Source of the DNA: Okamejei kenojei
Lineage: Eukaryota
DNA: 64,000 nt
Assembly: GCA_035221665.1 (NCBI GenBank)
Contig: CM069164.1
Location: 15,438,001-15,502,000, forward strand
Direction: 5' to 3'
Below the pieces are notes generated by a model that did no database searches, was not told the origin of the DNA, and saw only the letters and a list, made by a program, of their open reading frames with translations. Of this stretch, positions 9,670 to 63,636 are shown in pieces. Position numbers and translations under genes: made by a program. The stretch's first letter is position 1, and each line of letters opens with the position of its first letter.

Positions 9670-37934
<28,265 letters not shown>

Positions 37935-39488: not shown

Positions 39489-39583
39489 TTAGCTGAAATG
39501 TGCTTGACTGCAGTTAATCACTGTATTGTAATAAAATGCTTCCTCACAATCGTTACTCAGAGTTGCGTCATCAGTTTGCAGAT
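39489..39583 (-). CDS. ZWILCH: ZWILCH last coding exon
   Basis: tgaag|(D)[30 protein letters not shown] (human ends ...TNMVTCSQVHFK). Confidence 0.85.
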
Positions 39584-42500
39584 CTTCAAAACAAAAGGGA
39601 AACAAAATGAGCTGTATTTTTAACTCATTTAAAACCAGCGTATCCATTTTCGTAGGCCATAGGAAGGTTAAATGACCACGCATTTTCAGATGTGCTTTGA
39701 TAAAATATAATGCAACAGTACAGAAATTAACCATAAACATTCATGTAATACATGTAATACATTTTGAAAATAAAGCATATTTTAAACAAAGTAACATTTA
39801 AAGCTCTCAAATAAGAACCCATTTAAAGTGTAATCTAAACTGATTAAAACACAGGCCACAGCTGTACGTTTCCTAAACTACATAGCAATTTATACATGAA
39901 CTCAGTGAAATAGAAGCATATTGTTAACTAAAACAAATGTATCTAACAGATGGGAAAATCTTTTTGATTAGAAAAGGTTACAAATAGGCCTAAAGGATTC
40001 AAGGAAATCACTTAACAGCTAACAACTGAGTGGTCCTATATTTGAATCTGTACCATACAATGCAGCCCTGCAACACACCGACTTGGCAGCCAGTAAAGAA
40101 TGATCTGCAGATTCGCTGCCATTTTCCCCTCGTCTACTCCAACCTCATACCCGCCGAATGCCTTCTATCTCAATCTCATCTTCAAACCCTTCTACCTCAA
40201 TCTCATCGTGAGGGATAAAGTGATTAAACCCCACGATTGTAAGGGGCTTTAAAGAGGATTCAAAACGATAGAGGCCAGGGAGAGGGTTCTGACACAGCTG
40301 TGTATAAAAGTTACCAGGGCCATCCTTGAGTAAGTGATAGCATTGTATAGCGGTAGAAGGGAGTGATGTAGATAGATCCCTATCAGTAGAAGGGAGTGAT
40401 AGATGGGACCCTTGTCACTATAGCTTAGCTTTATTGCTGATATAGGAGAACTGAGAGAGTTCAGTTGGAGGTGAGTAAAACTAGGGCAGGTCATGGACAA
40501 CTGAGCATGCTTAATAAAATAAATAAATATTACAACACACCCGTGGTCAAGAAACTGCCCATTACCATGCACATGTCTGGACATGCGATGTATGATGTGG
40601 GAGGTACTGGGGGGACGTACCTACAGATTGTGCACCTCAGTGTCTGATTGGAGGGGTCAAAGGAGGGGAGGTTGGATGTAGAATTGTGTGTATAAAGGGG
40701 GTTTACCCTTCTGACTTTGGTGTGTCTCAACTTGGAGAGGCACCCGACTCTGCAGACTCGCAAATAAAGAATCTCTTGCTTCCATGATTTAGTCTCTGAG
40801 TAGTGATTGTGAGCACATCGCATATCTCACAAACTGGGGGCTCGTCCGCGATCGCCACTCCGGCTGCTCGGTGGAGGCGAAGAAGGAAGGGAAGGTGCAC
40901 CCTGCTGATTTCAGCAGTCTCTAATCTCCTTGCTTGCCATCAGCGGTTTGAGCGAGTGATATTCGGGCAAGAGACTCAGGAAGCAAGAGGGAGTGTCAGA
41001 TAAATAAACAAGGGACGGTCGAACGATTCTTTTGCACAAGACCCGGGTAAGAAAACTGACTATTAAGTATTGCCTGGGCGACCGAGGGTCTGTCGGACGG
41101 GAATAGTCCGATAAGATAAAGATAACCGGAACGGGAAAAGTAAGAGTCCGGGGGGAAACAGGACAAGGCTCACACTGGTGAAGAGCCGCACATTCCGCCT
41201 GATAGTCCATTGAGGCGAATGTGGCAATCTTGGGGAGAAGGAAGCCCCGGGGGTAAAAGATAAGGAGACTACGATTAAGTTCTGTTATTTTGATTAACCA
41301 AAGGAACCAATAAGGGGGAGTTCAGTCTGGTGGCACTGGGCTGTACAGAATATTCAGAGTATCACTTAGACATTGCAAAAATCTAAGGAAAATCACAGTG
41401 CCAAATGTTTTGAGTACGAAAAGTTAAAAAGGAAGGAGCAGCACGTGAAAGAAATATTGAGTTGTTTCACACAATCTATAGAAGAAACTCTTATACAGAT
41501 TGGTCAGGTACATGAGGAGTTAGTGCAAAATATGTTAATTTTGAAACTTTAATCTGTGTTGAAAATTGCATAATTTCATTGAAGTAAGAATGGAACTAAT
41601 GTGATTTGTGTGTAAAAACCGGTTTTGTGAATGAGGAAGTTTATATATGTGATAGGTTTGTTTGCTGTAGGCCACATGCTGTAAGGGTAGGTGTGTTCCT
41701 TTAAGAAATTGTAAGCAATGGGGAGGTTACGAACAGCTGTTAAGGTAACGGACAACACTTTGTATCATCGCAACTTAAAAGGGGAACGTTGGAAAATGTA
41801 GGTTGCTTGGCTTCTATAGATTTCTTTTCAATAAAGTTAATTTGGAAAATTGTTAGTCGCATGTATTTAAATTAGGAATTGGAATTTGGGAATTGTAGGG
41901 AAAATGGTTTGAACAAAATTAGAAATAAGTTAATTGCTGAACAACAAGCAGCTTTTATGGTTTGTTTAGATAAACATTCTGGTTGGAGAAGGGTAATGAA
42001 GGGTAATAGACCCAAGGGAAAAAAAAAACAAAAAGGAGTTGGCAGACAATGATGTCAATAATGGGAAGTTTATTTACTTCAGAAGAAAGACAGATGGTCA
42101 GACAAGCAGGAATAAAGATCTAGGAAAAGGGGTTGCAGGCTCCGGGGGTAGCAGCAGACGCAGGTCAGCAGTTACTAAAGGTTAATTTCGTAACCAAGTC
42201 ATGGCCAGATATTAGAAAGAAACTGGAAAAATTGGAGGATTGGAATGACAAACCATTAAATCAATTGTTAACAGAGGTTCAGAAAGTATATGTACGATGG
42301 GATGAGGAAAAACAGAAGGGAAAGGCAAAAATTATGTTGCAGGCAGTACAGCAAGGGGTAAAGAAGCGGAAGAGGCAGAGGAAGAGGAAGAGGAAGTGAA
42401 TGGAGGGACCGAAGTTGGGGTCCCCGGGAAAACAAGGAAAAAGGATCAGGAGGGTGGTACACGGGGCCATCCCGGTGTTATCATTGTAGCAAGGAGGGTC

Positions 42501-45500
42501 ATTTCAAGAGGGAATGTCCCAGGTTATGACGGGAGGTGCAGTCGTGCACACTGATGGAGGAAGAATAGGGAAGTTGGGGGTCCCGCTCCCTGGGGTGTAT
42601 GGGATACACACAGGAACCTCTGGTAAACTTGAAATTAGGACCCCAGGGAGAGGATATGGTATTTATGGTAGATTCGGAAGTGGAGAGATCAAGCGTAACT
42701 AAGGTACCGGAAGGAATGGGATTGGGTGAAAAGCAAGTCAGAATCTCGGGGGTAGGGGGGAAAGTGAAGACTGCCCCCGAGGTAGAAGGGGTGGTGGTAA
42801 AATATGAGAATCGAGAAGTCAGTGGAAGATTTTAAAAGGAAGGTGAATAAATTTGCAAAGGAGGATAAACTATCTGAGAAGTAAGAAATTGAGTTTAAAA
42901 TGAGAAAGAAGGCAGACCAGAAAGGATTAAAGTGGGAAGCAGAGGATAAATTGATGAGACTGCTTTAAAAAGATAAGAGCAGGCCAGGCACAGATTATCC
43001 TTTGGGGCACCCATAAACTGAGAGGGCTAAGAATTACCTTACCCAATATTCCTGATGGGGCAGGAAATGGATTATGGCTTTGGAGGACAATTATTGGCTA
43101 TGGGAGATTTGAAGGCACTGTTGGTGAAAGTGATAGGAACCACTAAACTGACAGAACCCCTGAAGATGGCTGATATAAAAATGCTGTGAACAATGCAATA
43201 AACAATGGCATGCTGTTTAAAACAGTCAGGCAGGGGGTATGGCAGGCCCTCAGACAATAATCCAGCAGCCTATCTGGAGAACAAGCTGAAAAGGTGGAGA
43301 CTGGAAACTGAACAAAAATAGAAGGCAACCAGTTAATGAACACTATATTTTGAACCACTGTGGTGGATGTCATTCCTCCTAAAGTCAAGTCTAGATTGGA
43401 GGAGGTGGTGGGATTGTAATTTATTTCCCACCCTTGATTCAGTAATCATTTGGTCAATGAGGTTGAGAAATATCGCAAAGATAGGAAAAAGACTTGCAGA
43501 CCAGCAGGAAGAGGTGCAGAGAAAAATGATGCAAATGTAACTTGAAGAGCTCAAAAAGAAAGAGCGTGAAAAAGGAAAGACAACGTTGTCAGAAACAACA
43601 GACCTGGTTGAAAAGTCTGAAATAAGTGATGCACCGACACACAGTGAGTCCTATGACAGAGCCAAACAGGGGCCAGAGATTCCTCGCCAATAATAAATGT
43701 ATTTGGGAGAGTGTTTCCTCAAATGCCCTATCAGGAGTGAAATAAATCTGCATATAAGCCCACACAGGACTGGGGTCCCCAAGGGAGGGAGGGATCTCAA
43801 GGAAGAGGTCAAGGAAGGCTAGTAAGGAGATAGGTAATGGTGTGTTGGGGATGTGAACAGGTACGATAATCAGGAAATAATAATAATAATAATAATATTA
43901 AGATAATGGTGAACATAGTTATGGTAAGAACATTAAGAAGAGGTATTAAATACACCTAGGCTAGGATGCGGCAAGGTTTTAAATACTAGCCCCATGATTT
44001 TAATCAGGTGTTGTAGGCAGATTTGGAAGGTGTTGATATACTATGTGGATGATTTGTTGGTTTGTTCCACAAGCAAGAAGCAATGTGAGAGAGAGACATT
44101 GTAATTATCTTGGAAAAGATGGCATAGGAGGTCATAATGTATCAAGGAAGAAGTTGTTGTTTTGTCAGCAGCAGGTAGAATATTTTGGACGAGTAATATC
44201 TAAAGAAGTAAAAGCTATTGCACAGGATCAAATTGAAGCGATAGTTGAAGTTCCCAAACCTCAGACAGTAGAACAGATGATGATGATATTGGGAATGGCA
44301 GGATATAGTTCAGACTAGATTGGGAAGTATGTTGAAATTGTGATGCCATTAAGGAAAATAATGAAGGAAGAAGGACACACAAGTCTGAGAAATGTTTTGC
44401 AGTCAGAGCCTTTGAATGAAGGGGACAAAAAGGTTTTGCTTGTGGATGTTTCTTGTTAAAGGGATCATAATAGCAAGTATGCAGTGTTTGAAGTGATGCA
44501 TCAGGATGAATTAGACTTTAAGGTAATCAAATTGGAAGCTTGCCTGCAATCTTGCTTAGCTCAATTGGCAGAAATTAAGGCTTTAAGAGCAGCATATGTA
44601 CATGGTATCTGGCACATGTTTGGAGCAGTAGGGAAACAGAAAGGCTTTGAGAAAAGCAACGGAGACCCCATGCAAAGTTAGCAGTGTCCCCCTATGAAAT
44701 GTTGTTTGGGTTACCTTATTTGGGAAAGATAGAAGGAATACCCACCATAGAGGGCAGTGATGTATTCTTAAGGAACTATTTACTGGCAGTATCTCATTCC
44801 CTTACAGAATAAAAACCTAAAGGATTATTGGCTCATAGCCCACCACTCGACTTTCCAATACATGCTGTAAAGGCCGGCGACTGGGTACTGGTCAAGAATT
44901 GGAAGGAGGAGAAACTCCAGCCCCGGTGGACCGGCCCATACCTAGTATTACTGACAACCGAGACAGCAGTACGAACAAAAGAAAAAGGGTGGACCCACGT
45001 AATCCGGGTTAAAGGACCCGTTGATTCACCCACTCTTGATAAGGAGGAACAGTCGAAGCCAGGAAAAAAGCCCCAACATTAACTTTTAGAAAAAGAAAAA
45101 AATTAAATGTATAACTAGCAGTATGAAAGGAGCATTTGTGGTATTGCTTGCTCTGCATGTAATTATGGTAAAAAGTAATAATAACTGTGATAAATGTTAT
45201 CATCCTATCAGATACGGAGGGCGGACAACCAGATCATTTACTTATCATTCCCATGTGAACGATGCTTGCGATAACCTGAGAACTATTTCTGAGGATGGGG
45301 GAAAGAAGTATTATAGAGTAAAGAATAGAGGATATGTAGGGAGGTTTGGGTACGTTACCTGTCCAAAGGGGGAGAGTTGGGTTTGTATGACTAGGACGGA
45401 ACAGTTAGGTCTCCATTTCCATGCCTTAAGATGGACATTAGACAAAATGAAGGAGGAAGTAATAACAAGGTTAACGGAAGTAGTAGTCACCAAGCCTCTC

Positions 45501-48500
45501 CCTCTCCCACCTACTCAGCCTCAATTGCACCAGACACCCTGTATGAAGAAATAAAGAAGCAGATTGAGATCCCTGAAGAAGGGAAAAACCTGTTTGTGGA
45601 CTTGGCCCTCCGGATAGCTGGAACCCTGAATGTGACTAACTGTTGGGTCTGTGGCGGACCACTGATGAGCTCACGTTGGCCGTGGAGAGGATCCATTGTT
45701 GAAGTATGGGACCTGATGGAGTGGAACCTGACAGTTGGACAAGACCGAGATCCCCTGACATGGGTCCTGACAGACGCTCCGGTTGGGACTGAGTGTATCG
45801 CTGGGCCCTGGGCAAAGGATGCCGTCCTAGTAGGCAGCAGCCCCTGCCAGCGCATCGTCACCCAGTGGCCAAATTAGTCCCGAGTGTGGTGGCCAGAGGA
45901 GCCTAAATGGTATCCAACTAAGAAAGACGGGAGAAACTGCACTATCTGGATGAAGACCGATGGAATGGAACTGACTGGACTATGGAACTACACCGGGAAC
46001 AACCCTTATCAAGGAATCCCGGTGTTGCGAGACATATGGAACAAGGTTACCTCTAGTGGACCAGCCCCTGAAGGACTGTTGTGGATATGCGGACACAAGG
46101 CATACTCAGTGTTACCAACAAATTGGAGCGGGATTTGCTTTATTGCTGGTACAACCGGGATTTTTCCTGTTAAACACCAAAGAAGGGCGGTCGCTAGGAG
46201 CACCTGTATTTGACGACCTATATCGGAAGAAGAGGAAAATAGACATTGGAGAATGGGAAGATGACGAATGGCCACCCGCAAGAATCATCTCATACTATGG
46301 ACCAGCCACTTGGGCACAGGATGGATCCTGGGGCTACCGAACCCCGGTATACATGTTAAACCGGATCATAAGACTTCAGGCAGTACTGGAAGCAATTACC
46401 AACCAAACTGCGGTGACACTGGAGATGCTGGCAAAGCAGCAGACACAGATGAGAGCAGCAATATACCAGAACCGGTTGGCCCTAGATTACCTCCTGGCAG
46501 AAGAAGGAGGGGTATGCGGGAAATTCAACCTCTCTAATTGCTGTCTAAACTTCGATGACAATGGACAGGCAGTGATGGACATATCAGAAGGAATCCGTAA
46601 GTTGGCACATATTCCAATACAAAAGTGAAATTCGATTATGGGTACCCGATCGTGGGATTCCATCCTCGGAGCAACATGGTGGAGAACGGTGGGACTCGTG
46701 TTTCTATGTGCAGTGGCTGGACTGATCTTTATCCCCTGTTGCATTCCTTGTTTTAGGAGACTTATTACAAGGAGTATAAGTCAGATGCAGGCTGTAGTCA
46801 TGTCTATGGGAGAGAAAGGGGTAATACAGAAAATAATGATAATGCGGCCAGGAAAGGTCCATGATCTACAGGAAAAGGAGATTAGGACAATGTTACGTCA
46901 ATTTGAACTGAAGGAGCTTGAAATTGAGGTTTAATCAATAGATGCGTAGCAAAAGAAAAAGGGAGGATTGTGATGGATAAAGTGATTAAACCCCACTATT
47001 ATGAGGGGCTTTAAAGAGGATTCAAACCGATAGAGGCCAGGGAGAGGGTTCTGACACAGCTGTGTATAAAAGTTACCAGACCCATCCTTGAGTAAGAAGT
47101 TATAGCATTGTATAGCGGTAGAAGGGAGTGATGTAGGTAGATCCCTATCAGTAGAAGGGAATGATAGATGGGACCCTTGTCACTATAGCTTAGCTTTAGT
47201 GCTGATATAGGAGAACTGAGAGAGTTCAGTTGGAGGCGAGTAAAACTAGGGCAGGTCATGGACAACTGAGCATGCTTAATAAAATAAATAACTATTACAA
47301 CACACCCGTGGTCAAGAAACTGCTCATTACCATGCACATGTCTGGACATGCAATGTATGATGTGGGAGGTACTGGGGGGACGTACCTACAGATTGTGCAC
47401 CTCAGTGTCTGATTGGAGGGGGTCAAAGGAGGGGAGGTTGAATGTAGAATTGTGTGTATAAAGGGGGTTTACCCTTCTGACTTCGGTGTGTCTCCACTTG
47501 GCGAGGCACACGACTCTGCAGACTCGCAAATAAAGAATCTCTTGCCTCCACGATTTAGTCTCTGAGTAGTGATTGTGAGCACATCACATATCTCACATCA
47601 CCTGCAAACAAGGACAGGACACTGTGGTCTGGCAATCTGATCTCTACCTTGCAGATTGGATTGAATTGAATTGAATACATTTTATTAGCCAAGTATGTAT
47701 ACATACAATAAATTTGCCTTGGTGCTTTGCTCGCAAGGATAACAACACAACATATAGTAGACAATTAAAAATAAAACATTATAATTTAAACATGTGAAGA
47801 ATGAAATAAAATACCAGAGCAAAAGAAGGCTACAGACTTTTGGCAGTTGAGTAGAGCTACTGCTCGTGGAAAAAAAGCTGTTTTTATGTCTGACAGGGGC
47901 AGCTTTGACAGTCCAGAGTCGCCTTCCGGAGGGAAGTGATTCAAAGAGTTTGTGGCCAGGGTGAGAAGGGTCAGAGATGATCTTACCCACTCGCTTCGTG
48001 GCCCTTGCAGTGTACAGTTTGTCGATGGGGGGGGGGGGGGGGGGGCGGGGGGGGGGGGGCGGAAGGTTGCAGCCAACAACCTTTTCGGCTGATCGAATGA
48101 TGCGCTGCAGCCTCCGGATGTTATGCTTGGTGGCCGAGCCAAACCAGACCAGGATGGAGAAGGTGAGGACAGACGCTATAATATAAAACTGGATCATCAT
48201 TGCCTGTGGCAGACTGTGTTTTCTCAGCTGCCGCAGGAAGTATATCCTTTGTTGGGCCTTTTTAACTGTGGAGTCGATGGTGGCCTCTCATTTTAGGTCC
48301 CTGGAGATGATGGTTCCAAGGAACTAAAATAACTCCATAGATGTGACTGTGGTGTTGTTGATGGTGAGTGGGTGGAGGGGAGGGGAAGCTCTCCTAAAAT
48401 CTACAATTAATTCCACTGCCTTAAGAGCATTGAGCTCCAGGTTGTTGCTGTGGCACCGGGACGCCAGCTGTGTCACTTCCTGTCTGTAGACCTATTCCTC

Positions 48501-51500
48501 CCCATCCTGGATCAGTCCAATCAGGGTTGTGTCATCAGCAAACTTGAGAAGCTTGGCAGAGGTGTCTCTGGAGGTGCAGTCGTTGGTGTAGAGAGAGTAA
48601 AGGAGAGGGGAGCTGGAAGCTCTCAGACACCTCCTCGTACCTATCCCTGGACCATGAACCCACTAGCAATCATTAGGCCACACCATCACAAAGCTCATCA
48701 CTGTGACACCAAGATTACTTGAGTTGCAGACTGTGAGGAAGGCTGTCAAAATATACAGCAAGATATATATCACCTACAGAAATGGGCAGAGAAATAGCAG
48801 ATGAAGTTTGAATGCATAAAAGGAAATACCTGGGGTAGTAAATGTAATATGATCCACAGGTGGCTTGGTGTTCACCTGCCATATCGTCTTTAATTCCTTT
48901 TGCCCATGACCACTAATAATCTCCATTCTCCACATGATGGGATTTTCACTGGAATACAAGAAGCCAGAATTATAAGGAAATCAATTACAAATACAAAGAA
49001 CATTGTGTTTTATTACTATTTCTCCAAAGCATCAACTCTATTCAGTCTTTGACCAGTAGCCAGATCAGTTTGCCAGAACCATTGAGCATCATGCATGTTT
49101 AACATATTTCTGCAGGCGGAATCATGAGTTGAATCTTAAATAATTTTATGTTTGAAGGCTGAGTATCCTGGTTGCACTAGGAGCACGATTTTTCTTAATC
49201 ACTCAAAAGTACCAATGACTAAAGGCACAAAAGATAACCAGGGAGTCCACAGTATAATAAAATTTAAATTAAACCATAAATTGGGGGAGGGGCAAAAAGT
49301 ATATTGGATTAACACGAATATAGACACAAAAAGCTGGAGTAACCCAGCGGGACAGGCAGCATCTCTGCAGAGTAGGAATAGGTGACGTTTCGGATCGAGA
49401 CCCTTCTTCAGACAGGTTAGGGATATGGGAAACGAGAGATATAGGCAGTGATGTGGAGAGATAAATAACTATGAATGAAAGATATGCAAAAAAGAAATGA
49501 TGATAAAGGAAACTGACCATTGACAGCTGTTTGTAGGGTGGAAAACGAGAAGTCAGTGCGACTTGGGTGGGGGAGAGAGAGCGAGAGCGAGGGAGAGAGA
49601 GCGAGAGCGAGAGAGAGAGAGAGAGAGAGAGAGAGGGAATGCCGGGGCTACCTGAAGTGAAATAAATCAATATTCATACCACTGGGCTGTAAGCTGTTGG
49701 ATTGTTTTTTACACAAAAAGAGATTCTATTAGGGTGGCACAATTGAGCAGCTGGTAGAGCCACTACCTCAAAGCACCAGGGTCCCAGTACTATCCTGACT
49801 AAGGATACTGTCTGTGGAGTTTGCACATTCTCCCTCTGACTGCATGGATTTCTACCTCCCTGCCCTTTAAGCATTTTTTTAAAAACAAAAGCATTCACCT
49901 TATCTTTAAATATTTCCCATAATCCCCTCCTACTCCACATTTAATTTTTTCAGTTAAATGTTTTCTCACAGCCGAGCCATTATATAAATGCAAGTTCTCG
50001 AAAACAGGAATACAAAGTACAAGCAGAATTAAGCCATTTAATAAACATGTCTAATTAGATTGTATCTGAAAGGAATACAATGTTAAAAAGTGGACAATTT
50101 TAAATATTTTGACATTTTATGTCTTTGACATCTTATGCACTTCATCTATCTATATCCATTTGTAGCCTTCTTATTCCCCTTCACAATTTATTTTCTTACC
50201 CATAACTCAACCAAATATACCAGTTATATCTATGCTGACTGTCAACATTTTGATATCTCATTAAAAGAAAAGACCTCAGCATTGTTTGCTCCCTGTGGAA
50301 ACCCACACATTGCATCTTGTTAATAAAAAAAAAGATTAATGTTTACTCCGTTTCCTGCTAGCCCGCCACAGCGAAATGCTACCTCCTTACTTTTCCTCAC
50401 ACAGACTATAAGGATTATGATTTTGTCCATTCTCCTCCAAGAAAGTAAACACAATAAAAAAATAAATGAACAGCATTTTCTAACATAAATTATTCTCCAA
50501 ATACTTATTTGGGCATTTTGATCAAAGATATTGTTCCGACATTAAATACCACTATACCATCCAAGTTCATCTCCAAACTCGTGGAACTTGGGAGTCAGCA
50601 TTCACCTCTGGAACTGGATCCTCGACTTCCTGACCAACGGAACACAATCGGTGAGGATACATGAACAATCATCCTCTACAATAATCCTCAACCAACTGGT
50701 GCCCTGCAAGGATGCGTTCTCAGCCCCTTCCTTACACACCCACGACTATTCAGCCAAATACAAATCCAACTCAATTTACAAATTTGCAGATGACACCACT
50801 ATAGTGGGCCGAATATCAAATAATGACGAGACACAGTACGGGAGGGAGATTGAGAAACTCATAACCTGGTGCCATGACAATAACCTTTTACTTAATGTCA
50901 GCAAGACAAAGGAAATTGTGATTAATTTCAGTAAGCGGGGTATATTGGGGTACACATACCCCGATAATCATGGATGGCACCAAAGTAGAGATGGTTGAAA
51001 GCTTCAAGTTCCAAGGAGTAAATATCACCAACAACTTGTTAGGAAGTTTGGCATATCCCCAACAACTCTCACCCCAACTTCTGCAGATGCGCCGTATAAA
51101 GCAATTTTACTTCGGAGTCACGTGAGTGACTACGTGAAGAACCCCGCCTGGCGCTGGAAACGGCATTACGTCGACGCTGACGGCAGAAGCAGGAGCTGCA
51201 CAGACAGCTCCTCGACAGCGGTAGGTTCGGAACCGGCAGGTAAGTGCTGTTGAAAAAATTTTTTAGGACTGGAAAACTCCGTGCCTGGTGGAAACCTGGA
51301 TTTTAAAGGTTTTAAAAACAAACTAAAAGTTTAAATTGAACAGATATACTCTGTTAAAATAACGGAGTTTTTAAAAAGAACGTCCCAGGGGAATACCCAG
51401 CGATTGGGACGAGAGATTAATTACGGGGCCGGTTCCGATACTGGTACCGTTAAAAATACGGTAGAGAGGTAAAAATGCTCCACAATCTTTTGGCAGGGAA

Positions 51501-55038: not shown

Positions 55039-58000
55039 CATTGATGAAAATGTTGCAGTAGGTAAGAGTCTCTGTGTCAATGAGACTGCTTATTACACAC
55101 AAAAACCACATTGGGTTCAGTAAAAACTGATGGTTATAGAGGAATGTATTTCTAGATGGTTAAAAATTGGATACATTCAGTAGGAACTAGACACTGAAAG
55201 GTGGAAAATCACTCTGTTAATGAGGAAAATACATTCACAGGAATGGCACAGGATGAGCCACTCGAACAAAGATGCAAGGCCACAGGAGGCTGTAGATTAC
55301 TGTTAAAGTAAAAAGGAACCAGTCATGGTGTCAGATTTAGACACGCAATGTTCGGTTCTCTATAATTGTTGCTTTGTCATGTCATAAAAATATATATATC
55401 AATTGGTATTTGTGATAAACTTGCCTTTCAATGGAAAGGGCATTATTTTCATTTTTTATAATGTAAAATAATTTATCACATAACTTGAGGTAATGTTTGG
55501 GGAAAATGTGTTATTCGCTCGTTATTGTGTTAAATGAGCCGTACTGTCGTATGGAATAAATTCCACGACACGAAAAACACAGAAAGCTTCAAACTCTTCA
55601 CGTAGTCACTCACGTGACTCCGAAGTAAAATAGTAAGATTAAACGAGAACTTACCAGTTCGAAGTTTGATCGTTATTTTATGAGGAGTAACGATGAGGGA
55701 TTACGTGAAGAACCCCGCCTGGCGCTGGAAACGGCATACTTCAAAGCAGCGGCATGAAAAACACAGAACACAAATAGCCGGAGTAAGATAGTAAGGCTCA
55801 TCATAGATTTAGAACTACCAGATGATCATTCATTTTATTGAGGGTGGGGAGTGGAGGGCACGTAATCCCTCATCGTTACTCCTCATAAAATAACGATCAA
55901 ACTTCGAACTGGTAAGTTCTCGTTTAATCTTACTATTTTATCGGGATGCATCACAGTATAGTTTGGGAACAGCTCCATCCAAGACTGCAAAAAAATTGCA
56001 GAGAATTGTGGACGCAGCCCAGACCATCAAACGAACCAACCTCCCTTCTTCCATTGACTTCATCTACAACAGCATAATCAAGGTCCAGTCACACCACAGT
56101 CATTCCTTCTTCTCCCCTCCCCCATCAGGCATGAGGTACAGGTGTGAAAACACATACCTCTAGATTCAGGGACAATTTCTTCCCAGCTGTTAGGAGGCAA
56201 CTGAACCATCCTATCACAAAAAGAAAGCAGTCCCGACCTACCATCTACCTCATTGGAGATCCTCAGACTATCTTTAATCAGACTTTACTGAAGTTTACCT
56301 CGCACTAAACATGATTCCCTTTATCCTGCATCTGTACATTGGAGATGGCTTGATGGTAATCATATACAGTCTTTAAGCTGACTGGATAGCATGCAACAAA
56401 AAGGTTTTTCACTGTACTGTGGCAAAAAAACTAAACTAAACAGCAGACACATTTCATTTTAGACTTACTTTTCATGGAAAGCTTTAATGGCCATGGGGTT
56501 GATTGGTAACTGGAAAACATGTTGTTCATCTAGTGGATTGTCCTTGTAGTATCTAGAACAGGACCTGTTGTAAGAGAAACCAAGGAGAAGTAATATAATA
56601 TCTTCTTTTGTTTTTCTTTTAGACAAAAGATACTATCACCAAAGAAAATACATTTACAATAAAAATGTATATATTAAATCCTCCAACTCCAAAGTATAAT
56701 ATTGATTTCCATTATCAATCAAAACCCTCTAATTTTAGTGCATTACAAACATTAACCCTTCATTCAGCTAGCTCATCTCATGTTTTTAAAATCAAAGCAA
56801 ACAAAAACCAAGGTTAACGACCTTCTCCATTCTCTCTTCTTCCTTCACTGTGTATGCCTCTCTCCTCCTTTCTCCCTTTAAATCTCATCACTTTCAAAAT
56901 GAGATGAATACTGCATCAGACCTCCCAACATTTGATTGTCAAAATTCATAATATTTCCCCTCAAAATTCATATTTTTAAATGAAAATTCATAATATGTCG
57001 CGGCGCCCTATTCGGGGTCCCATGTCACAAATTCTAAATTGTGAAGAAGTATTTTAAATGCCAAAATGTGAAAAAGGTACATGTATGCTGAAACATTTAT
57101 AATTCTTTGTTAAACTTTGATAAACTTGGCCTTCATTTCTCTCACTTGGGGTTGTTGCCGGCGGCTATGCGCCTGCGCACTGGTGCAGATCAGCGGGCTG
57201 CCGGCGGGCGGGTGCGGCACATGCGCACTTGGCAAGGTTGCCGGCGGGTCTGCGCCTGCGCACTGCGTGGGGGTGGGGGGGGGGAGGCCCGGTGATGGGG
57301 CTGCCGCGAGCGGCCGGCTGGCGGCAAGAAAGTGCCGCTGATCGCGCGGGCCGGCGCCGCCCGGGCGTGGCGTGGCTCGAAATGGCGCCAGGCCCGGCAA
57401 CCCTCCCCCACTGCGCACGCGCGGCCACTGGGGCCCGGCAACCCTCCCCCACTGCGCACGCGTGGCCACTGGGGCCCGGCAACCCTCCCCCACTGCGCAC
57501 GCGCGGCCACTGGGGCCCGGCAACCCTCACCCACTGCGCACGCGCGGCCACTGGGGCCCGGCAACCCTCCCCCACTGCGCATGCGCGGCCACTGGGGCCC
57601 GGCAACCCTCCTCCACTGCGCACGCGCGGCCACTGGGGCCCGGCAACCCTCCCCCACTGCGCACGCGCGGCCACTGGGGTCCGGCAACCCTCCCCCACTG
57701 CGCACGCGCGGCCACTAGGGCCCGGCAAAGTGCCGCTGATCGCGCGGGCCGGCAAACCGGGGACACATGGCGCCGGCGTTCACCACGGGAGGAACAATTT
57801 TGCGGGATAATTAGGTTACAAATCGGAATGGCGGGAAGGGAACCTAAAAAGCGGGAATATCCCGCCAAAAGCGGGATAGTTGGGAGGTCTGCTGCATGAT
57901 CTAATCATTTTCAGATACTCAGTTTTTTAGCCTTCAAATATTATTCCATGTGTATTAATTTAAGTAATTCTCTAATTTTCTGCACAATGTAAAATTCCCA

Positions 58001-62802: not shown

Positions 62803-63636
62803 AAGAAGGAACTGCAGATGCTGGAGAATCGAGGGTACACAAAAAGCTGGAGAAACTCAGCGGGTGCAGCAGCATCTAAGGAGCGAAGGAGATAGGCGAC
62901 GTTTCGGGTCGAGACCCTTCTTCAGACTGGTCAGGGATCAGGGAAACGAGAGATATAGACGGTGATGTGGAGAGATAAGGAACAATGAGTGAAAGATATG
63001 CAAAGAAGTATCGGTGTTAAAGGGAACAACCATCTGTTTGTGGTGTGAAAATGAGAAAATGTTGCTCACTCCCGTGAGGAGGCCCCGATCGGATGTGGAA
63101 TGGGAGGGGGAGTTGAAGTGCTGAGCACATCCGGACCTCTCGCCAAGCCTCCTGGGCATCTCCTCCACGGCCAGGAGTGAGCAAACAAGTGTTGCCTTTG
63201 CAAGGGAAAGTGCCGGAACAGCACAGCCTCATCCCGCTTGGGGGGCCAACTGCTTGGGGAGTCTGCATCCTTTGGGCTTGAATATTGAATTTTCTCAATT
63301 CAGTTAACCCTTGCTGTCTCCTCCCCTCCCACCTCTCCCTCAGCCCTCGGGCCCTGGCATTCCCTCCATCTCCATCCCCCTCCCCCACCCCAGTCGCACC
63401 AGCTTCTCATTTTCACCCCAACACACAGCTTACAATGGCTTGTTCCCTTTATCACCGATACTTCTTTGCATATCTTTCACTCATTGTTCCTTATCTCTCC
63501 ACATCACCGTCTATATCTCTCGTTTCCCTGATCCCTGACCAGTCTGAAGAAGGGTCTCGACCCGAAACGTCGCCTATCTCCTTCGCTCCTTAGATGCTGC
63601 TGCACCCGCTGAGTTTCTCCAGCTTTTTGTGTACCC
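62803..63636 (+). mobile_element. Penelope-like element, 5'-truncated, with inverted pseudo-LTR
   Basis: GIY-YIG endonuclease C-terminal remnants (AQHFNSPSHS on -, CLGSLHPLGLNIEFSQF on +); inverted arms 62833-63029 and 63440-63636. Confidence 0.8.
63541..63575 (+). ncRNA. Putative minimal type I hammerhead ribozyme in a Penelope pseudo-LTR (inverted copy at about 62894-62928 on -)
   Basis: CUGAAGA-A-GGGUC(UC)GACCC-GAAA-C-GUC: hammerhead core boxes, a perfect stem II and a palindromic minimal stem III; stem I is weak. Confidence 0.6.

Follow-up and report, generated by a model that had tools for sequence, protein, structure and literature searches.

The stretch of Okamejei kenojei DNA analysed here, hereafter the window (64,000 nucleotides), carries on its forward strand a provirus of 7.4 kb in which parts of two retroviral lineages, A and B, are arranged in the order A-B-A. 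The element is bounded by a 5′ LTR of 625 bp (40207-40831) and a 3′ LTR of 629 bp (46969-47597) with 95.7% identity (K2P 0.039), corresponding to a divergence of 3.9% between its ends. The LTR pair is flanked by a target-site duplication of 4-5 bp with one mismatch, a sign of integrase-made insertion that is weak when taken alone. Directly behind the 5′ LTR lies a primer-binding site (40835-40852), presumably pairing with tRNA-Pro at its 3′ end (17 of 18 positions), and a polypurine tract was recognised from the sequence at 46950-46966. The genes follow the order gag-pro-gag-pol pieces-env with large deletions (at least five inside the element) and do not stand once each and in order, as would be expected of an infectious recombinant under the scheme of PMC4724089; intact coding capacity is nil. 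As in the reintegrated mosaic ERVs of that scheme, the internal segments are sense-oriented and come from different ERV groups, and the same LTR is found at both ends with no third unrelated LTR. An earlier note on this DNA had seen no internal LTR around the middle block, and we likewise detected neither a further LTR copy nor any long repeat inside the element, in a search that a lone B-type LTR could escape. All parts listed in that note are present; the LTR at 40207, a matrix-like piece and an AT-rich block had been missed. ARAGORN found no tRNA genes and Rfam no read-through or packaging RNA family (one chance match).

The 5′ part begins with a broken, matrix-like gag piece (41126-41345), likely of lineage A, with a weak match to the N-terminus of the bird ERV P0029 (48% over 29 aa, E 1.3). 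The AT-rich block (41346-42030, GC 0.34) stands in place of the middle of gag-A and is covered in three of four sequencing runs that were aligned; it gave no Pfam match in three frames, and its best blastx hit on the protein panel had an E of 0.91. A reading of this block as a leader or matrix of lineage B was unsupported, there being no match to B Gag N-termini and a CpG ratio of 0.48, which is A-like. The gag-A remnant (42037-42568) comprises a capsid from which about 78 aa are missing in frame, a nucleocapsid knuckle and a TAG stop (42566-42568), next to which the protease frame opens. It was recognised by Pfam as Gag_p30 (E 1e-6) and zf-CCHC (E 3e-5), it matches a Gag capsid in the PDB (E 1e-7), and it shows 49% identity to the Lonchura Gag-Pol P0015. 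The lineage A protease (42569-42817) is cut off after its N-terminal part, with 57% identity to P0006 and 51% to P0004; its frame, which ends at about 42815, matches a Hemitrygon ERV protease at 57% over 72 aa.

Lineage A sequence returns downstream with the C-terminal tail of integrase (44684-45082; Pfam MLVIN_C, E 4e-12). This tail is 80-84% identical to the Leucoraja Pol P0003 and 75-84% to lineage A overall, against 29% to the tail of the B reference P0002; a scan of JGI metagenomes with it returned two short matches of 15-22 residues. It is followed by an env of gamma type (45124-46934; Pfam TLV_coat, E 1e-5) with two frameshifts and two stops. RT, RNase H and the integrase core of lineage A are absent from the window copy. 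The protease, the C-terminal domain of the capsid and the integrase tail group in clade A, together with class I ERVs from chondrichthyans and from birds, and position suggests that the LTRs and env belong to the same lineage. Judged by the 80-84% identity in the integrase tail, P0003, whose cluster has 16 members, is a relative of the lineage A donor and not its parent. Lineage A may be HERV-I/HERVIP-like, a name that serves as a lead; it was not filed under HERV-I proper, which presumably has a tRNA-Ile primer-binding site, the site at 40835 being of what we take to be the tRNA-Pro type.

Between these parts, the block 42933-44675 is of lineage B and holds another capsid along with RT and RNase H. 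The gag-B remnant (42933-43865) consists of the second capsid, a coiled-coil, an RG-rich stretch and half a knuckle, interrupted by four stops and by five to nine frameshifts, the count varying with the guide protein. The claim that 42990-43860 is gag-homologous was borne out by three kinds of comparison: the capsid is 54% identical to Mobula P0033 (135 of 251 residues), a profile built from four homologues matches teleost Gag-Pol proteins in their N-terminal part, and the same profile found four matches at E<=10 among 177,635 PDB sequences, every one labelled as Gag or as capsid p30 (E 0.004-0.012) and aligned from chain residue 1. Atlas neighbours of P0032 are Gag clusters as well. Gag-A and gag-B could not be aligned with each other (best tblastx E 1.4). 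The CWGC motif that had been read as the start of a knuckle does exist (43843-43854); it forms half a knuckle only, followed by an (AAT)n tract (43876-43901) near the deletion in which the B protease was lost together with the beginning of the B RT. The remaining RT piece, the end of the palm and the thumb (43939-44402), contains three frameshifts and four stops and is 72% identical to Mobula P0002 and 76% to Hemitrygon P0035, against 37% to P0004 of lineage A. A deletion of about 170 aa joins the thumb to the RNase H part (44397-44675), which has an internal gap of 16 aa and shows 59% identity to P0035 and 38% to P0004. No Pfam family was recognised in the gag-B and RT/RNase H pieces (six of six frames blank), and LTR, matrix, protease, integrase and env of lineage B were not detected in the element, so that B is present as a deleted piece of 1.8 kb.

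Lineage B groups with ERVs of rays and teleosts. Its neighbours comprise proteins from Mobula (P0002, P0033), Hemitrygon (P0035, P0030-31) and Chiloscyllium (P0032), and its named teleost relatives come from Danio, Syngnathus, Festucalex, Merluccius and Melanotaenia. The predicted model of P0033, the gag-B homologue, is of low confidence (pLDDT 43) and gave no Foldseek match at E<=0.001; its top match (E 1.5e-3) was Q2VF30, which may be the Gag-Pol of SSSV, so that the SSSV/ZFERV label given to the middle block in the earlier note is a lead. IMG/VR was searched three times, starting from the RT-B piece, from P0002 and from P0003, and yielded no relatives. In terms of a published classification (PMC6001957), lineage B may belong to the epsilon-related clade Mu.

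Phylogenetic analysis separated the two lineages. Trees were calculated from 129-166 columns under the LG+G4 model, a 102-row RT tree being made as a quick version only. The RT piece is sister to P0002 (support 99/99) and the integrase tail is nested in clade A (support 100/99). On one common set of 22 references (23-row subsets), the AU test rejected both a placement of RT with A (p 5.0e-5) and a placement of integrase with B (p 3.1e-5), and thus also the possibility, named in the earlier note as what would overturn it, that all segments stem from one ERV lineage. P0038, another reference of lineage B, groups with P0002 in the integrase tree but takes no resolved position in the reduced tree of RT. 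The reference Pols of A and B share 35-39% identity. Two gag remnants and a pol from two lineages, as first proposed, are confirmed, and the mosaic is real with near certainty.

At the first junction (42818-42932) the match to A protease ends at 42814-42826 and the match to B gag begins at 42933, somewhat upstream of the start at 42990 suggested before; the second, from B RNase H to A integrase (44676-44686), lies near 44.68 kb as had been stated. Lineage A breaks off in the protease and restarts at about residue 740 of P0003, so that around 3 kb of its pol is replaced by B at non-homologous points. Junction 1 is bridged by a contig of run X16 (organism D) covering 42820-43210 with seven differences and one gap, and junction 2 by an X16 contig covering 44526-44793 with two differences, no gap and at least 50 bases on each side; among the matches listed (24 pieces shown, 35,067 not shown), junction-bridging contigs came from X16 only. 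In run X1, five contigs depart from the window sequence at 42817.

The reading that we favour, and consider probable on balance, is that of a defective A-B-A recombinant in which a decayed B was captured by non-homologous template switching during reverse transcription and whose copies then spread through the germ line with the aid of a helper virus. Within it, a join mediated by RT appears likely compared with a route at the DNA level. RNA transcribed from an old B remnant would have been packaged with an A genome, arriving separately or as a read-through from an upstream A LTR, as in oncogene capture. RT would then have jumped out of the A protease and back into the A integrase tail. The product would retain the cis signals of A (LTRs, primer-binding site, leader and polypurine tract) and could not make Gag, RT or integrase; A proteins would therefore be required in trans. 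More deletions may have accumulated along the way.

The main competitor is nesting, either by insertion of B into an A provirus in the same orientation or by two A proviruses around an old B, with later deletions taking away both inner LTRs and the A pol ahead of any spread. Since the element has undergone at least five internal deletions, loss of inner LTRs is plausible and their absence leaves room for this route; the older look of B would suit two A copies around an old remnant, and secondary integration is documented as a source of HERV mosaics (PMC4724089). However, two deletions would be needed, each running over an A-B border and erasing every trace of LTR, primer-binding site or polypurine tract, insertion alone would not delete the A pol, and the two-provirus version would still need a transcript and reverse transcription to yield matching LTRs with a target-site duplication. 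Recombination, already preferred to nested insertion in the earlier note, keeps its advantage over simple nesting, since the A pol is replaced by B and not just interrupted and the search for an internal LTR was negative. We regard nesting as rather unlikely.

The state of the B block bears on the condition of its donor. The CpG observed/expected ratio is 0.15 in B and 0.51 in A (p 3.5e-5), although a low ratio could be lineage B's own composition, and TpG+CpA reaches 1.36 against 1.11. Breaks amount to 11-14 per kb in B and 3-5 in A (p 1e-4 to 0.02), counts that depend on the guide protein, the B guides being more distant than the A guides. Gap-free X16 contigs cover 43370-43716, 43913-44235 and 44526-44793; together with the one-gap contig over junction 1 they include at least six B frameshifts and the RNase H gap as in the window, while differing from it by only about 1-4%. 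CpG depletion, the excess of breaks and frameshifts common to contigs of another organism make it quite likely that B was a decayed genomic remnant before its capture. A recombination event between two intact viruses that infected a cell together or were expressed in it side by side, with decay setting in only once the product had integrated, would agree with the same orientation, the same gene order within B and the lack of an inner LTR, and Pol/Env discordance is widespread in fish and amphibian ERVs (bioRxiv 10.1101/2021.11.23.469661). Against it stand a break density in B two to four times that of A, a CpG ratio under a third of that of A and frameshifts held in common with contigs so little diverged, and we judge it improbable. 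Of the earlier proposal of template switching between co-packaged viruses, recombination thus stands, and the intact co-infecting B donor gives way to what was likely an already decayed endogenous copy.

Depth indicates a family of many copies. In X1 (19,080 records), the sole flank contig has a depth of 51 and the listed ERV contigs have depths from 63 into the thousands; depth drops at neither junction bin, the depth summed over B and both junction bins exceeds flank depth more than 1000-fold, and thousands of contigs differ from the window by 1-10%. The share of records continuing into unlike sequence was 0, 0 and 0.08. Between 25 and 49% of the sequence words were present in 20 of 22 listed runs (12 studies, seven organism labels), and the broken frames recur in two ENA contigs at 96-100%. 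Nothing aligned from the raw-read run X21. The family varies in make-up, as gag-A/protease bins in X6 are several-fold to 40-fold shallower than B bins. Joints at 42348-43266 (X6) and 42966-43553 (X1), having fewer than 30 letters on the short side, were not counted as deletion variants. Among the matches listed, no contig spans the whole element and no second full-length copy with other flanks occurs, so that multi-locus spread is read from depth and short contigs. Spread as a family after the join is highly likely on these observations. Repair of a double-strand break in an A provirus by ectopic, non-homologous copying from a B locus, one patched locus being inherited by several skate species, also predicts replacement without inner LTRs and would fit a flank seen in X1 only, yet the summed depth and the thousands of diverged contigs are unlike a single locus and make this very improbable. 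An assembly artefact joining two ERVs, conceivable in a repeat-rich region, is practically excluded because contigs of another organism span both junctions almost unchanged, and also by the matching LTR pair with its target-site duplication.

Beyond the recombinant itself, it is conceivable, though doubtful, that a high-copy, helper-dependent skate ERV family arose when a gamma-related virus captured the dead gag-pol of an epsilon-related fish ERV, and that this block persisted during amplification in several species for a cis function such as packaging or genome length. If true, it would furnish direct fossil proof that the two halves of the class I retroviruses exchanged RNA in cartilaginous fish, with breakpoints that are datable and common to the copies. 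Recombination of fish ERVs in print is mostly deduced from conflict between Pol and Env trees. The present element preserves actual breakpoints between lineages with Pols 35-39% alike, plus signs of an already dead donor. RT-based surveys would place this family in the wrong lineage, and junctions held in common might be used as markers to compare skate species. Among the papers listed by literature searches, whose scope excluded Repbase/Dfam and subscription journals, none described this element or such a mosaic in cartilaginous fish.

Mosaics of this kind are already on record from koalas and humans, and the element does not represent a new kind of system. A close counterpart is recKoRV1, the KoRV-PhER-KoRV recombinant of koalas (PMC6112702). 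It shares the A-B-A layout, with LTRs and ends of a younger virus around an older, dissimilar, non-coding endogenous piece; it is likewise defective and present in many copies, copackaging has been proposed for it, and microhomologies were reported at recKoRV breakpoints. Here, too, the middle piece points to an older degraded endogenous element, indirectly, by its CpG ratio, breaks and frameshifts. Unlike recKoRV1, the skate element retains gag and protease remnants, the integrase tail and all of env from A, its B part is a recognisable gag-RT-RNase H block that leaves two capsid remnants in tandem, and its age is much greater, given LTRs that differ by 3.9%, with occurrence in several host organisms. 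The notion drawn from recKoRV, of old genomic remnants that disable a newer invader and are remobilised by it, is thereby extended from a recent epidemic in koalas to cartilaginous fish, millions of years ago. Harlequin (PMC4724089) is similarly a defective mosaic, bounded on either side by a single LTR type, lacking a third LTR and having a comparatively well kept env; it and related class I HERVs are repeated with the same internal pattern, and spread by a helper (“midwife”) has been proposed. The donors of Harlequin were primate class I groups, whereas the relatives of the two donors here have Pols only 35-39% identical, one gamma-related and the other grouping with fish ERVs.

The reverse transcriptase (RT) and the integrase tail of the provirus derive from different retroviral lineages. 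The RT piece is 72% identical (84/116) to P0002 of Mobula and 76% (31/41) to P0035 of Hemitrygon, compared to 37% (53/143) for the lineage A protein P0004, and RNase H is 59% identical to P0035 versus 38% to P0004. In contrast, P0003 of Leucoraja shares 80% identity with the integrase tail, against 29% for the P0002 tail, but only 36% with the window RT. The reference Pol proteins of lineages A and B are 35-39% identical to each other. In a quick RT tree of 102 rows, the window fell within an eight-row clade with P0002 (SH-aLRT 96), and chondrichthyan, bird and unnamed Pol proteins formed the separate nine-row clade A (99). Careful LG+G4 trees were calculated from 22 references having both regions (8 A, 2 B and 12 others), hand-chosen from larger sets. 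The window is sister to P0002 in the RT tree (99/99), where the second B reference, P0038, has no resolved position, and sister to P0003 in the integrase-tail tree (99/92), inside clade A (100/99). Forcing RT with A costs 58.4 lnL (p-AU 5.0e-5) and forcing the integrase tail with B costs 67.8 lnL (p-AU 3.1e-5). The separate phylogenies thus agree with the earlier note, which had proposed a pol joined from two lineages, and sequence comparison supports the reading of the element as a mosaic of distant class I lineages of the recKoRV/Harlequin type.

The element also harbors two gag remnants. Gag-A (42037-42568) carries the Pfam domains Gag_p30 and zf-CCHC and matches a solved Gag capsid on both sides of an in-frame gap (about 78 aa versus P0015 of Lonchura); the protease frame, ending at about 42815, is 57% identical to P0006 of Hemitrygon over 72 residues. 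The block after the protease has no Pfam match. A sequence search among 435 candidates detected four chondrichthyan homologues of this gag-B, which is 54% identical (135/251) to P0033 of Mobula when X is put at each break. The profile of these four matches four PDB sequences, all Gag or p30, as well as the N-terminal part of Gag-Pol in Danio, Merluccius and Corythoichthys, and the Atlas neighbours of P0032 of Chiloscyllium are Gag clusters. The block at 42990-43860 is therefore gag-homologous and, since it is related to capsid as gag-A is, the provirus carries two capsid remnants; no alignment was obtained between gag-A and gag-B, so that the earlier claim of two dissimilar gags holds. The sole link of B to SSSV is the top Foldseek match of a poor model of a gag-B homologue, Q2VF30 (E 1.5e-3), which is presumably SSSV Gag-Pol. 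In the gag-A region, an AT-rich block (41346-42030, GC 0.34) is without protein match; it was found in runs from three organisms, all with a joint omitting about 99 bases at 41476-41576, and could represent a third donor.

The mosaic block is enclosed within one single provirus. The 5′ LTR (40207-40831) and 3′ LTR (46969-47597) are direct repeats with 95.7% identity, differing by 14 transitions and 10 transversions in 625 columns (K2P 0.039). A primer-binding site, presumably of the tRNA-Pro type, directly follows the 5′ LTR, a polypurine tract (PPT) lies upstream of the 3′ LTR, and a 4-5 bp target-site duplication with one mismatch is found in the flanks. Both rates quoted from Han 2015 (2.2e-9 and 2.2e-10 per site per year, PMC4422223) place the age of this copy at 9 to 90 million years, a very wide range to be read as a bracket only. 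The relatives nearest by name are from Leucoraja, Mobula and Hemitrygon, which points to a skate or ray as host. Env (45124-46934), a gamma-type coat protein by Pfam, was tentatively assigned to A together with the LTRs by continuity with the integrase tail. With 2 frameshifts and 2 stops in 1.8 kb, it is less broken than any other long gene of the element, and a little-broken env is also noted for Harlequin (PMC4724089). It shares only 25% identity with the bird lineage-A proteins that extend into env, which makes an exchange of env within lineage A possible. Inside the integrase tail, a 17-base near copy (16/17) of the 3′ PPT at 44976-44992 occupies codons that lineage A conserves; it may be a PPT-like site of the central kind or due to chance. 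LINE-type RT remnants lie at 22095-23028, 47685-48566 and 50546-51070, one of which adjoins the 3′ side of the provirus, is oriented on the minus strand and has a poly-G tract (about 48028-48060); further repeats are a GC-rich tandem array of period 41 bases (57309-57800) and an inverted pair of about 240 bases (62833-63636, 94% identical) related to the repeat at 49324-49676.

At junction 1, the match to A extends to 42814-42826 and alignment with B begins at 42933; at junction 2, B reaches 44675 and A continues from 44684. These positions are non-homologous, leading from protease back to gag and from RNase H on to the integrase end, and the neighbourhoods of the two junctions share no word longer than 8 bases. 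Some 3 kb of the lineage A pol is absent at B's place, and B has internal deletions in capsid (19 aa), from nucleocapsid to RT palm, between RT thumb and RNase H (about 170 aa) and in RNase H (16 aa). Losses would also belong to a nested insertion followed by deletion, which we consider improbable; inside the element no third LTR-like copy or long repeat was found, as the earlier note had observed for the middle block. Distant gag or pol parts are fused directly in several ray and bird ERV proteins (P0002, P0006, P0011, P0029, P0057, P0066), which suggests that internally deleted forms may be common in both lineages, or could reflect spliced gene models.

B contains 10 CpG in 1,670 bases, an observed/expected ratio of 0.15, versus 0.51 in A (86 in 3,217; p 3.5e-5); the minimum falls on the B block, and TpG+CpA are in excess there, matching the CpG loss. 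For B, 17-21 breaks were counted over 1,538 bases, versus 9 over 2,931 for A, or 15 over 3,151 with six granted to a 5′ matrix-like piece (p 1e-4 to 0.02 across both A counts), although lineage-specific composition and the more distant guide proteins for B qualify a reading of B as older. At least six B frameshift positions are covered gap-free by contigs of X16, a run from organism D, differing by about 1-4%; at the first env frameshift, the X16 contig has gaps versus the window. The broken RT and RNase H frames recur, at 96-100%, in four small proteins encoded on two ENA contigs. CpG loss, break density and shared frameshifts fit a donor already decayed in the genome, and B was likely dead when captured. 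Recombination between two intact viruses would join two lineages as well, and is rated unlikely beside these signs of decay. The recombination favoured by the earlier note is thus supported in refined form. Capture in the course of reverse transcription agrees with the non-homologous replacement, the sense orientation and the apparent age of the donor, and we consider it fairly probable that a decayed B remnant entered an A genome in this way, carried by a read-through transcript or by an RNA co-packaged with that genome. Since A's cis signals are kept and every enzyme is lost, any spread needed a helper, and the defective mosaic has probably spread via a helper virus.

Between 25 and 49% of the element's words occur in 20 of the 22 runs listed (12 studies, 7 organism labels). 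Four of the 22 were compared with 39500-46960 at 82% likeness: three cover 28-30 of 30 bins, and the raw-read run gave zero coverage. X16 contigs of 392 bases (42820-43210; 7 differences, 1 gap) and 268 bases (44526-44793; 2 differences, no gap) cross junctions 1 and 2, respectively, so both exist outside this assembly; DNA repair at one locus, which would also replace sequence within a provirus, is very improbable. In run X1, junction bins are as deep as adjoining bins, and five contigs diverge at 42817, as expected of other elements continuing differently; records continuing into unlike sequence are few (0, 0 and 0.08 in three runs). The single X1 flank contig has depth 51 and ERV contigs reach thousands, where summed depth is not a copy number. 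For this reason, and because none of the contigs listed spans the whole element or gives a second flank pair, a multi-copy, multi-locus family in skates is graded as likely only. In run X6 (organism B), gag-A/protease (41990-42736) is several-fold to 40-fold shallower than the B block, which counts against a uniform family and hints at a subfamily without this part.

No description of this element was found in the literature searched; the supplements of bioRxiv 10.1101/2021.11.23.469661, whose text reports frequent Pol/Env exchange in fish and amphibian ERVs, may list skate lineages. ZFERV is reported to be epsilon-like and a relative of SSSV (PMC4977317), and clade Mu, likewise epsilon-related, is present in almost all jawed vertebrates (PMC6001957). 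In recKoRV1, a fragment of PhER, an older element that does not code, is framed by KoRV ends; copackaging has been proposed for it, and some of its breakpoints show microhomologies (PMC6112702). Mosaic HERVs, Harlequin among them, are recombinants that are themselves defective and were reintegrated with the assistance of helper viruses (PMC4724089). Set against the latter's account, the window element has the mosaic segments and LTRs but is not an infectious recombinant. The type is already known from recKoRV and Harlequin, and this element is another such mosaic.
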